Assembly (NCBI GenBank): GCA_964563465.1
Contig: CAZLVZ010000002.1
Span: forward strand, 1 to 44,536
Reading direction: 5' to 3'
DNA: 44,536 nucleotides
Source of the DNA: an uncultured Candidatus Saccharibacteria bacterium
Lineage (GTDB): Bacteria > Patescibacteriota > Minisyncoccia > Minisyncoccales > PEYH01
The notes beneath the pieces were generated by a model that saw only the letters and a program-made list of their open reading frames with translations, was not told the DNA's origin and did not search any database. Within the stretch, counting starts at the first letter, position 1. Each line of letters starts with the position of its first letter. Positions 9,501-44,536 of this stretch are shown in pieces. Made by a program: the position numbers and the translations under genes.

Positions 9501-10050
9501 GCTCAAGTTTGACGAAAAACTTATTAATAAAACATTAGAACAGAAGATGGATACAGTAAGAGGGATAGTCAGCGAAGGGCTTAAGATTAGAAGCGACAAT
9601 TCTATTAAAGTTAGACAACCATTGAATACTTTAAAAGTTAGGAGCGAAAAGCTTAATAAAGGATTGCTTGCTTTAATTCAAGAAGAACTCAATGTAAAAA
9701 ATATTGAATTTAAGGAAGATGCTACAAAGCAAGAACATTGGAAATTGGAATATGATTTAAAGATTACGCCTGAATTGCAAAACGAAGGAATGATTCGTGA
9801 AGTGGCGCGTCAAATTCAAGATATGAGAAAGAAAGCTAATTGTAGCCCAGAAGATAAGGTTGTAATTTATTGTGATGGAAATAAAGATTTTGTGAACCTA
9901 TTAAATCACAACAAAGAATTGATTTTGTCGCAAACCCGCGCAAAAGATTTTATTTCTCAAAGAAAAGAAAAAGAAATATTTAATATTGAAAGAGAGATTA
10001 AAATTAATAATCAAGAACTTTGGTTAGGACTAAAAATTGTAGTAAGATGA
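6514..10050 (+). CDS. ileS: Isoleucine--tRNA ligase (type 2-like) carrying a nested extra domain
   Basis: Motifs seen: PPTANAKPGVHHVLTRAFKD, the CP1 editing block TTTPWTLPANIAIAVNP, KMSKSKGNVVDP, and the zinc knuckle C469xxC472 / C710xxC713. The 1178-aa length is inflated by an insertion of about 200 aa. Confidence 0.95.
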   Translation: MEVGRSKSEEKIAKFWKENQVFEKSLNKKGGDFVFYEGPPTANAKPGVHHVLTRAFKDIICRYQTMQGKRVLRKAGWDVHGLPVELAVEKSLGLKNKKDIEEYGIDKFNQKCKESVWEHAKEWGDLTERIGFWLDLKNPYITSDPLYMESIFNIIKQISNKGLLYQDYKVVPYCPRCGTVLSSHEVAQGYKKIKENAVYVKFEIKNKKFKANTFLLVWTTTPWTLPANIAIAVNPKIEYILVKINKEYLIIAKKRQEILEDNFEIIKEFKGEDLVGLQYKPIFKKDVIVLPKNTKNAYQILPADFVTTQEGTGLVHIAPAFGQDDMELIKTENEKQKKESDKFPILLIVDKEGKFTVEVKKWKGMFVKDADSLIIKELKNTNRLFKQEKYEHDYPFCWRCDTPLLYYAKKSWFIKVKDIKQKLIENNQKINWLPEHIKEGRFGEWLRELKDWALSRERYWGTPLPVWKCEHCDHQEVIGGREDLKKQKFSTNQYFVLRHGESTSNVEEFYCSWPEPKKSLLTQKGEFQINEIIEKIKNEKIDIIFSSDILRTSQTAELVAKALGKKVKYDIRLREIDMGIFNGKDLQRGREFFNSEVKLSAKEVFLNKFNNGFSEGENFSEVKMRVLDFLKKIDKKFKNKNILIVSHELPILMLKSALLGWTNEEMAEHRKDISTSTGSFAKIEFKIFPYNQKGELDFHRPYIDEVQFLCPKCGKAMERVPEVIDCWFDSGSMPFSQRHWPFSDQSSKINNYSIPPELFPADYISEAVDQTRGWFYTLLAISSLLGFESPYKSVVVLGHVLDKNGQKMSKSKGNVVDPWEMIEKYGADALRWYFYTINQPGDSKLFSEKDLDQRLKKFIMTFWHCFTFWKMYEQTVENKSAEIDSQNVLDKWILSKLNGLVGDTTKKLDKYDITGAAREIESFVIDDLSLWYIRRSRKRFQRPDSQKEIEQAYSVLRHTLLVLSKLTAPFIPFVSEEIYLEVMNKKDKLSVHLDDWLKFDEKLINKTLEQKMDTVRGIVSEGLKIRSDNSIKVRQPLNTLKVRSEKLNKGLLALIQEELNVKNIEFKEDATKQEHWKLEYDLKITPELQNEGMIREVARQIQDMRKKANCSPEDKVVIYCDGNKDFVNLLNHNKELILSQTRAKDFISQRKEKEIFNIEREIKINNQELWLGLKIVVR
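7981..8595 (+). other. Histidine-phosphatase (PGAM-like, branch 1) domain inserted within ileS (about aa 490-694)
   Basis: The family motifs occur in order: YFVLRHGESTSN, LTQKGEFQ, FSSDILRTSQTAE, REIDMGIFNG, GENFSEV, ILIVSHELP. The region is flanked by the two CxxC halves of the IleRS zinc knuckle, and the reading frame is continuous. Confidence 0.7.
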
Positions 10051-35087: not shown

Positions 35088-35170
35088 TGCCCGGGGTGGG
35101 GGTCGAACCCACATGAACGAAGTCCATGCGATTTTGAATCGCACGCGTATACCAATTCCGCCACCCGGGC
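35088..35170 (-). tRNA. tRNA-Leu (anticodon CAA), class II with long variable arm
   Basis: The minus strand reads GCCCGGG-UG-GCG-GAAUUGGUAUA-CGC-G-UGCGA-UUCAAAA-UCGCA-(variable arm)-GUGGG-UUCGACC-CCCAC-CCCGGGC-A. All stems pair. The CCA end is not encoded. Confidence 0.9.
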
Positions 35171-43399: not shown

Positions 43400-44325
43400 G
43401 AAAACTAACAAAAATAAAAGTTTTAGGTATCGGTGGTTCCGGAGGCAACGCTCTTTCCAGAATGACGAAATGTAAAATTCAAGGAGTGGAATTGATTGCT
43501 TTTAATTGTGATGTTCAAGACCTAAAGAAAACAAAAGCAGACAAGAAGATTCAGATTGGAGAGAAGCTTACCAAAGGATTGGGCGCAGGTATGAATCCAC
43601 AGACAGGAAAAGAAGCGGCAGAAGAAAGCCGTCTTTTTATAGAAGATGCCTTGAAAAATACAGATATTGCTTTTGTGGTTTGTGGACTTGGAGGAGGGAC
43701 TGGTTCTGGAGCTGCGCCAGTAATAGCTGAAATTGCTAAAAATCTTGGAATTTTAACGATTGGAGCCGTTACTATGCCCTTTTCTTTTGAGGGAGCTCAA
43801 AGAAAAAATATAGCTAAACTAAGCCAAGAAAGATTGAAAGAAAGAGTTGATACTCTTTTTGTTATTCCAAACAATAAGTTACTTGAGCAAATAGACGAAC
43901 AAACAACCTGTATCTCTGCTTTTTGGTTGTGTGATGAGATATTAAGACAAGCGGTGCAGGGTATTTCTGATTTGATTGTTAGGCCAGGAATTATTAATGT
44001 TGATTTCGCTGATGTTAAGGCAATAATGAGTGATTCTGGCTTTGCTCTTTTTGGTGTTGGTAATGCCGAAGGTGAAGACAAGATTGAAAAAGCAGCCAAT
44101 ATGGCCATCAATTCTCCTTTCTTAGATTTTGGCATCAATGGAGCTCAAAGAATTTTATTTAATATCACAGGTGGCAAGAATCTATCATTAGTTGAAATTC
44201 AGAAGGCAGCAAAGATTATTACTAAAAGCTCTTCTGCAACCCGTGTTATTTTCGGAGCAATTCAAGATAACAAACTAAAACCTGATGAAGTCAAAATCAC
44301 CCTCATCGCAGCAGGGATTGAATAA
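43396..44325 (+). CDS. ftsZ: Cell division GTPase FtsZ, core-only (no C-terminal linker or conserved tail)
   Basis: Motifs seen: VLGIGGSGGNAL, the tubulin signature GLGGGTGSGAAPVIA, NVDFADV, and the ending ...KITLIAAGIE*. The ATG overlaps the ftsA stop (ATGA). Confidence 0.95.
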   Translation: MRKLTKIKVLGIGGSGGNALSRMTKCKIQGVELIAFNCDVQDLKKTKADKKIQIGEKLTKGLGAGMNPQTGKEAAEESRLFIEDALKNTDIAFVVCGLGGGTGSGAAPVIAEIAKNLGILTIGAVTMPFSFEGAQRKNIAKLSQERLKERVDTLFVIPNNKLLEQIDEQTTCISAFWLCDEILRQAVQGISDLIVRPGIINVDFADVKAIMSDSGFALFGVGNAEGEDKIEKAANMAINSPFLDFGINGAQRILFNITGGKNLSLVEIQKAAKIITKSSSATRVIFGAIQDNKLKPDEVKITLIAAGIE

Positions 44326-44337
44326 CTCATAATTTTG

Positions 44338-44460
44338 AGGTTCGAATCCTACTCGCGGAGCAGGCTAGTGAGCCTTTCGGGAGACCGAGAGGCCCTGTAT
44401 TCTCAAGGTTTCTCAGGATCGGTTCGAGAAAAAATCCCCATACCCCGATAGGAATCGAAC
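44338..44460 (+). ncRNA. Candidate structured RNA / tRNA-T-arm-like inverted-repeat element (family unknown; strand tentative)
   Basis: The arms GGTTCGAATCCTA (44338..44350) and TAGGAATCGAACC (44448..44460) pair at 12/13 positions. Inside lie GGCU-AGUG-AGCC and an 8-bp hairpin CCUUUCGG-GAGA-CCGAGAGG with a GNRA loop. G+C is far above the local background. A terminator follows. Confidence 0.45.
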
Positions 44461-44486
44461 CGTATTCAAGAGTAAATTTTTCCAAT

Positions 44487-44509
44487 CAATCGCCATTTTG
44501 GCGATTTTT
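44487..44509 (+). terminator. Intrinsic terminator
   Basis: AATCGCC-ATTTT-GGCGATT forms a 7-bp stem, followed by TTTT. Confidence 0.7.
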
Positions 44510-44536
44510 TGGTAAAATAAAAATGAAAGATCATAA

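Follow-up and report, generated by a model that had tools for sequence, protein, structure and literature searches.

Directly downstream of a short ftsZ gene, at the 3′ end of contig CAZLVZ010000002.1 (assembly GCA_964563465.1), lies a G+C-rich intergenic element that belongs to a dispersed repeat family. The window analyzed here, 44,536 nucleotides (nt) long, is the entire contig (C2) of the source genome, G000 (580 kb, 51 contigs, 33% G+C, an estimated ~98% complete); other G numbers denote sampled relatives, and C numbers denote contigs. Copies of the repeat carry a head derived from the 3′ end of a tRNA gene, tend to run in the same direction as the neighboring genes, form arrays with accessory genes between them, and are conserved at a syntenic tRNA-Gln locus. 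Positions 44339 to 44518 make up an orphan copy of this intergenic module of Paceibacteria; we consider the chances about even that the module derives from a tRNA trailer, acts as a transcript end, and doubles as homology for recombination. The repeat family is undescribed: it is absent from Rfam, and a literature search found no account of such an element.

Homologs were sought by BLAST in 60 relatives, and a sequence-only covariance model built from seven copies was run on 151 sampled genomes of the order (E ≤ 0.01) and, for the rest of the class, on 150 genomes sampled across it (E ≤ 1e-5). The model matched 52 of the 151 order genomes, which represent 48 of 121 genera, and no genome had more than 15 copies; outside the order, just three other genomes matched. 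Full-length BLAST homologs were present in the same genus (G001 and G002), the same family (G004 and G018), and other families (G046 and G038), accompanied by many partial matches. A pattern search gave hosts in the Paceibacteria/Parcubacteria (Nealsonbacteria, Portnoybacteria, Wildermuthbacteria, and Paceibacterota), and about half of its 30 matches fell in unrelated phyla, the chance expectation for 18 fixed bases in 596 Gb. Because homologous copies exist in dozens of genomes, the window element is more than a product of chance. The original prediction, made from the window sequence, had reasoned that multiple copies would indicate a repeat element, and this is what was found; the element is not an RNA of a single locus, and the window copy, for which a new small RNA had been one suggestion, has no promoter of its own.

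All copies inspected were intergenic, and the indels of 5 and 14 nt that separate copies indicate that the element is noncoding. Among 96 distinct hits, 37 were full length and 47 comprised the left half only (head, linker, and a first hairpin, H1), usually with a terminator directly after. Relatedness among copies did not track that among species: the G001 copy was 86% identical to a copy in G134, of another family, and only 72% identical to that in G000, of its own genus. Within single genomes, identity was 95% for two G091 copies and 59 to 79% for four G075 copies. The only full copy in G000 is that of the window; short copies lie at C32:5488-5551, C45:1635-1694, and C25:691-758, the last on a tRNA-Gln(TTG) gene. 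In G000, heads are cut by the ends of contigs C45 and C36, and the end of C32 lies 30 nt upstream of another head; thus, the assembly breaks at the repeat.

The window head shares 96% identity with tRNA-Asn(GTT) gene 3′ ends from relatives (the tRNA-Asn gene of G000 itself lies at the edge of contig C36), and the element sits immediately 3′ of an intact tRNA-Asn gene in G046 and G134 and of an intact tRNA-Gln(CTG) gene in G091 and G088. A real tRNA 3′ end served as the head in 19 of the 96 copies (Gln, 14; Asn, 3; Trp, 1; Ser, 1) and in 13 of the 37 full-length ones. At least six further sampled genomes kept the order ftsX-tRNA-Gln(CTG)-element in synteny; their FtsX proteins were 52 to 80% identical to the reference, and the five element bodies compared were 50 to 89% identical among themselves. 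Conservation at this locus argues against neutral decay, and the plain decaying remnant that had been entertained is also at odds with ~100 nt beyond the tRNA part being conserved across families. At the window copy, ARAGORN found no tRNA in positions 44300 to 44536, where only the last 22 nt of a tRNA remain, bearing out the claim that no complete cloverleaf could be drawn. Nothing relevant in the window matched Rfam even at E ≤ 10, including the tRNA model (RF00005), as the failure to match known RNA families by eye had suggested; five homologous loci likewise matched no relevant family. Two subthreshold Rfam matches to the Moco riboswitch (20 to 22 bits; threshold, 36), one of them at a locus where it overlapped a tRNA, were not reproduced by a focused search. 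Both arms of the element had been described as resembling tRNA ends; the left arm is indeed homologous to the tRNA-Asn 3′ end and is a real tRNA end in relatives, but for the right arm an inverted T-arm copy is a better interpretation than a second, independent tRNA end. On the minus strand of G000 contig C25 (~600 to 760), the tRNA-Gln(TTG) gene is followed by the short copy, and a second T-arm-plus-acceptor fragment in direct orientation, GTCGTTCGAATCCTAGCCCGCA, lies ~95 nt farther along.

Copies are oriented with the genes around them. The upstream open reading frame (ORF) was co-oriented for 80 of 89 copies and the downstream ORF for 78 of 84. Direct arrays with a spacing of 1 to 4 kb occurred in G075, G091, G088, G150, and G055; those of G091 and G088 begin at an intact tRNA gene. 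The genes between copies are miscellaneous or accessory, encoding Menorin, PHP, 2-thiouracil desulfurase, CAP, DUF218, methyltransferases, and proteins of unknown function. None of 101 array proteins matched Phage_integrase. One tyrosine recombinase each was found in G000 and G150, and that of G000 scored as XerC/D (222 bits to XerD, versus 92 bits to an integron-integrase model with a cutoff of 265). Y1_Tnp matches were weak and confined to G000 and G055, with none in copy-rich G075, G150, or G088, and no serine recombinase was found in G000 or G075. As candidate partners, tyrosine integrases, Y1 transposases, and serine recombinases were therefore rejected, none being consistent across the copy-rich genomes searched.

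The ftsZ locus places the window copy at a synteny break. G000 and G001 both carry the element after the short ftsZ and then diverge. In G001, the element is followed by a flavodoxin-like gene, a small gene, and genes 93 to 94% identical to those of G000 contig C32; in G000, the sequence runs on into C45, where a PgdA-like deacetylase that has no close ortholog in the genus precedes a short copy, a gene of unknown function, and one more head, and C32 begins with a further short copy. The element thus borders a variable region that seems to have been exchanged recently. Identity between the two genomes was 93 to 94% in the C32 block compared with 74 to 80% on the core side, a sequence pattern that suggests recent exchange. 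The matching segments (G000:C32:1051-5285 and G001:C7:552-4758) include a gene for a MerR-type helix-turn-helix joined to a GHKL-like ATPase, along with a small partner gene. A looser second case was seen between G055 and G125, in which synteny extends to a point ~1 kb ahead of a copy and disappears across the array.

We considered two ftsZ-centered explanations and rejected both. Truncation of ftsZ by the element is contradicted by the presence of the short paralog throughout the family (25 of 25 genomes, nearly all with open frames of ~310 to 340 amino acids that end at the globular core and adjoin ftsA) and of a second, longer FtsZ elsewhere (G000:C14:4107-5036; all 25 family genomes carry both paralogs, and the open frames of the longer one span 409 to 540 amino acids). 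A 3′ untranslated region (UTR) regulator specific to the ftsAZ operon, as originally proposed, does not hold either: a full element follows the short ftsZ in only 2 of the 25 family genomes (G000 and G001), and the downstream sequence differs in almost every genus. Just after position 9516 of G012 contig C20, a tRNA-Asn 3′ fragment (TAGGTTCGAGTCCTACTGCCGGAGC) stands alone, its first three bases forming the TAG stop codon of the short ftsZ; a terminator comes next, and the rest of the element is absent. In another genus, the short ftsZ of G016 (contig C40) is followed by a different G+C-rich, hairpin-rich stretch of ~200 nt, CACTAGGGGGACAGTCCCCG...GGGCGGGAGCCC....

Features of the window copy are collected in Table 1, on the basis of 49 aligned distinct copies and the 96 distinct hits. 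The region is as G+C-rich as claimed (0.50 to 0.525 across positions 44280 to 44459, versus 0.334 for the contig), and the element starts 13 nt past the ftsZ stop codon. Its ends form an inverted repeat in which GGTTCGAATCCTA (44339-44351) pairs with TAGGAATCGAACC (44449-44461) at 12 of 13 positions across 97 intervening nt; the arms had been predicted with this pairing but at coordinates one base too low. The hairpin previously called a perfect 8-bp stem, H1 (GCCUUUCGG-GAGA-CCGAGAGGC), exists with its GNRA-type loop but has 9 bp, one of them U-G. A GGCU/AGCC pairing (44363-44374) is also present as noted, but it competes with H1, and the CCUG/CAGG pair is found at 44394-97/44414-17. Within the second half, CGGUUCGA (44420-27) can pair with UCGAACCG (44455-62) as an alternative to the closing stem. 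The clean terminator reported after the element stands (stem 44488-44506, then a T run), whereas the new gene announced at position 44523 is only a 14-codon frame, probably not a gene; the next real gene starts at C45:108.

Table 1. Parts of the window copy and its immediate context
Feature	Position	Strand	Sequence, basis, or remark
Upstream gene, short FtsZ paralog of 309 amino acids	43396..44325	+	ORF list; context, outside the repeat
Head, copy of a tRNA 3′ end	44339..44360	+	96% identical to tRNA-Asn(GTT) 3′ ends in relatives; 5′ two-thirds of the tRNA absent
Head layout			GG (last two pairs' worth of T-stem), T-loop UUCGAAU, T-stem 3′ strand CCUAC, acceptor 3′ strand UCGCGGA, discriminator G
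Conserved linker, directly 3′ of the discriminator position	44361..44371	+	CAGGCUAGUGA; GGAGCAGGCUAGUG kept in most copies across genomes
Hairpin H1, 9 bp, GAGA (GNRA-type) loop	44372..44393	+	Fold; near-invariant core GACCGA
A/U-rich conserved stretch	44394..44408	+	CCUGUAUUCUCAAGG here, CCUCAUAUUUUGAAA in most copies; 49-copy alignment
Hairpin UUUCUC-A-GGA/UCGG/UUC-GAGAAA	44409..44431	+	Minimum free energy (MFE) fold
Second GGUUCGAG box, inside the 44409..44431 hairpin	44421-44428	+	
C-rich conserved block	44436..44448	+	CCCCAUACCCCGA; CCRUACCCCG kept across copies
Tail, inverted copy of T-loop plus T-stem 3′ strand	44449..44461	+	UAGGAAUCGAACC; 12/13 pairing with head
Tail-terminator spacer	44462..44487	+	GUAUUCAAGAG...UUUUUCCAAUC; (U)GUUCGGGR in most copies
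Intrinsic terminator	44488..44512	+	AAUCGCC-AUUUU-GGCGAUU plus U run; same stem recurs across the order, near-identical in many relatives
Extended −10 promoter-like box, overlapping the terminator tail	44510..44518	+	TGgTAAAAT; TGGTAGAAT in most copies
Start of a 14-codon frame in an A/T-rich leader running on into C45	44523..44536	+	C2/C45 overlap, 55 nt

Across copies, the linker follows the consensus CAGGCUAGUG, and H1 is present in nearly every copy, with a GNRA or UUCGAGAGA loop and stems that vary in both sequence and register (CCUUUCGG/CCGAGAGG, GGCGUUCCGG/CCGAAACGCC, GCUCGG/CCGAGC, and CGG-UUCGAGAGA-CCG). The A/U-rich stretch has the consensus CUCAUAUUUUGAAA, the second box GGUUCGAGAAAAAAAUC, and the tail UAGGA(C)AUCGAAC, the inverse of a T-arm. 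The C-rich block resembles a tRNA-Gln-type acceptor 3′ strand in its sequence. The tail is followed by a spacer of ~15 to 25 nt and a stereotyped terminator, AATCGCC-N4-5-GGCGRTTTTTT, fused to TGGTAGAAT. An insertion of ~14 nt, corresponding to the 5′ half of the 44409-44431 hairpin, is seen only in a long variant from the taxonomic family of G000, in the window copy and in G002, G004, and G018; the short variant is found elsewhere. A second conserved head type, GGUUCUAACAUCGUCC, is not tRNA-like, has a loop 5 nt larger, and recurs in many genomes. The UUUUUCCAAUC motif also precedes some heads of the second class (in C32, G075, and G018).

Under the interpretation that we favor, the module would have arisen from tRNA-Gln and tRNA-Asn genes, namely from their 3′ ends and the trailers that follow, with the tRNA-linked form probably the original. 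Its master form would consist of the tRNA 3′ end, the linker, H1, the A/U-rich stretch with the second GGUUCGAG box, the inverted T-arm copy, the terminator, and the next promoter. Orphans, which keep the last ~22 to 25 nt of the tRNA as a head and lie in sense orientation just past the stop codon of a gene, would then be secondary copies. The upstream transcript is predicted to carry the module at its 3′ end, and the module to fold in vivo into a block rich in hairpins, with the head-tail inverted repeat as its closing stem; the terminator of the module would stop transcription, and the adjacent extended −10 promoter would take over. Such a role, that of a transcript-end and insulator module, would be analogous to that of REP, ERIC, or Correia elements in 3′ UTRs. 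At the DNA level, the repeated 150 to 250 bp could supply homology for the gain, loss, and swap of accessory gene blocks, and recombination of this kind may be how the repeat spreads. Homology-based block exchange would explain both the direct arrays and the occurrence of copies at synteny breaks.

Known small intergenic repeats offer the closest comparison. Like those, the element has 1 to 15 related copies per genome, all intergenic where inspected, with an imperfect, foldable inverted repeat. ERIC/IRU, REP-BIME, and Correia elements of Proteobacteria share with it a length of ~125 bp, an imperfect terminal inverted repeat, multiple copies, sites in intergenic regions just after genes (transcribed in those families; here, cotranscription with the neighboring gene is predicted from position, sense orientation, and terminator), and possible roles as terminator or promoter signals and as recombination substrates. 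In contrast, the head of the Paceibacteria repeat is a tRNA 3′-end copy, a real tRNA gene end in a fifth of copies; its orientation is locked to genes, its copy number is low (1 to 15), its host is an ultra-small member of the Candidate Phyla Radiation (CPR), and it has neither a RAYT/transposase partner nor sequence similarity to those families.

Folding supports the proposed RNA structure unevenly. The window element folds more stably than dinucleotide shuffles on both strands, as the original prediction had asked to be checked (z = −4.5 on the plus strand and −5.0 on the minus strand). In an alignment made on sequence only, the closing helix was paired in 94% of cells in its outer part and in 70% in its inner part, a retention that mainly reflects conservation of the sequence itself. 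In 19 of the 37 full copies, the MFE fold had at least 8 head-tail pairs. RNAalifold produced hardly any consensus fold from the MAFFT alignment or the model alignment; the flank extensions of the closing and alternative stems showed no preference for either; and a brute-force scan of column pairs was too noisy for use.

Several observations weigh against our interpretation. Conservation in relatives beyond the tRNA part is clear, but covariation did not exceed controls: 76.7% of cells were paired, compared with 75.9% in 500 shuffles, 76 of which reached the observed value. For 30 of the 37 full copies, the more stable fold was that of the reverse complement, so there is no plus-strand preference, and per-copy folding was modest (mean z = −1.25 against mononucleotide shuffles, with only 11 of 37 below −2). 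The closing stem has a competitor, in that the tail can pair with any GGUUCGA box, and where a copy is linked to a tRNA gene, the tRNA itself engages the head. The sequence blocks are kept more strongly than a mere terminator would need, which hints at a specific partner. Finally, the ftsX-tRNA-Gln(CTG) locus of G000 itself lacks the element, which is therefore dispensable at that site.

An alternative that we consider unlikely is that the copies are functionless attachment (att) site scars: islands would have inserted serially into the T-loop of tRNA-Gln and tRNA-Asn genes, each bringing a replacement tRNA 3′ end and pushing the old one downstream. The copies do resemble the attL/attR repeats of tRNA islands, with their tandem accretion, in being tRNA 3′ fragments from the T-arm onward, in forming direct arrays 3′ of an intact tRNA gene (G091, G088, and G134), and in having accessory genes between them. 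The left homology boundary lies in the T-stem, where integrases that target the T-loop reportedly cross over (Williams, 2002, in NAR), and short, decayed forms outnumber full ones among orphans. However, the arrays contain no integrase, and the single recombinase of G000 is Xer-like (G150 also has one tyrosine recombinase). About 100 conserved nt and a terminator extend past the tRNA end, and the second conserved head type, GGUUCUAACAUCGUCC, is not tRNA-like. Copies also lie far from tRNA genes: the window copy, which is not a direct repeat downstream of an intact tRNA gene, follows the core genes ftsA and ftsZ, and the sole tRNA upstream of it is 9 kb away on the opposite strand.

We regard as rather improbable a second alternative, a functional structured RNA released from a tRNA or mRNA 3′ end in the manner of small RNAs derived from 3′ external transcribed spacers (3′ETS), with T-loop-like boxes or single-stranded blocks that bind a protein, a tRNA, or another RNA. 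Consistent with this proposal are a G+C content of 50%, compared with 33% for the genome; an H1 hairpin capped by GNRA or UUCGAGAGA, whose stem varies from copy to copy; as many as three GGUUCRA boxes in one copy; two unpaired blocks under strong conservation (CUCAUAUUUUGAAA and CCAUACCCCG); the long persistence of the element at the syntenic ftsX-tRNA-Gln locus; strong enrichment of tRNA-Gln and tRNA-Asn as partners; and sense orientation with an attached terminator. The 19 tRNA-linked copies span exactly the tRNA 3′ end to an intrinsic terminator, as does Escherichia coli 3′ETS-leuZ, and their position in the sequence would fit a 3′ETS-derived RNA. The element differs from 3′ETS RNAs in being multicopy, in also following protein genes, and in having no known target. 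Against this RNA function, besides the nonsignificant covariation and lack of plus-strand asymmetry, stand the many truncated copies with the left half only, the missing promoter and Rfam relative, and the absence of the repeat from two-thirds of the sampled order genomes. The element is also not a hidden housekeeping RNA, because it is multicopy and lacks an SRP domain IV motif (judged by eye). Rfam models for the bacterial small signal recognition particle (SRP) RNA, 6S RNA, and type A RNase P RNA matched nothing at E ≤ 1 anywhere in the 98%-complete G000 genome, in which these RNAs are either very divergent, unassembled, or missing.

Comparably improbable in our estimation is an integron-like cassette site that works without a dedicated integrase, through the single Xer enzyme or host recombination acting on a T-arm-shaped hairpin, or, as a variant, a new T-loop-rich regulatory RNA tied to tRNA-Gln and tRNA-Asn. 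Integron attC/CALIN arrays are similar in their imperfect inverted repeats (60 to 140 bp) at the 3′ end of gene blocks and in their co-oriented accessory genes; the Paceibacteria arrays differ in lacking an integron integrase and the R″/R′ consensus, in having blocks that are often multigene, and in giving each unit its own terminator and promoter. Least probable is a nonautonomous mobile element moved by an enzyme encoded elsewhere, either a miniature inverted-repeat transposable element with 13-bp terminal inverted repeats or an attC-like folded site, for although the terminal repeat, the length of ~125 bp, the multiple copies in subfamilies that do not follow species, and the cassette-like arrays of gene plus repeat are suggestive, the orientation is locked to genes, no target site duplication flanks the window copy (TTTTGA versus GTATTC; only this copy was checked), none of the recombination enzymes surveyed above is a fitting partner, and the arms depart by eye from the attC consensus RYYYAAC/GTTRRRY.

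The genomes of the CPR are ~0.6 Mb in size and are thought to hold very little repeated or mobile DNA. A conserved, order-wide repeat at the borders of variable blocks provides a handle on accessory gene exchange in these organisms, and it accounts for some of the recurrent assembly breaks in metagenome-assembled genomes. Were the cassette-site explanation true, ultra-small CPR genomes would have a means of rearranging their accessory genes, with tRNA-Gln and tRNA-Asn genes as the main sites and others, such as the ftsZ 3′ end, as secondary ones. These two tRNAs share a dependence on GatCAB transamidation. Should the master copy next to the tRNA prove to be a functional RNA, it would define a new lineage-specific class of structured RNA tied to them. 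The covariance and hidden Markov models from this analysis can be used to annotate such regions and to find cassette arrays.

Further observations concern the sequence around the terminator and elsewhere in the window. The terminator-promoter unit, AATCGCY-N3-7-RGCGRTTTTTTGRTAnAAT, recurs with the same stem sequence in many genomes of the order; G000 has about six such units (including window positions 44488-44518 and others on C4, C18, and C32), compared with none in shuffles. Beyond it, an A/T-rich leader, ACTTTAATTAAAAAACAATRTGTCWAAAA..TAATTGCAAT (window positions 44519-44536, continuing to C45 positions 30-107), is 83 to 93% identical in G150 and G055, of other families, where unrelated proteins come after it, and may be an operator or a 5′ UTR motif. 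In the G150 stretch, which follows a copy of the repeat and is 83% identical, the reading frame is lost and the next protein is unrelated. We dropped a possible origin of the 14-codon frame from a G001 peptidase gene, for which a 15-nt match had spoken, in view of the stronger match (83%) between the full leader and G150. The window also contains an ordinary transfer-messenger RNA gene (tag ANLFQKPALAYA) at positions 97-437 and a tRNA-Leu(CAA) gene at positions 35088-35170, both on the minus strand.

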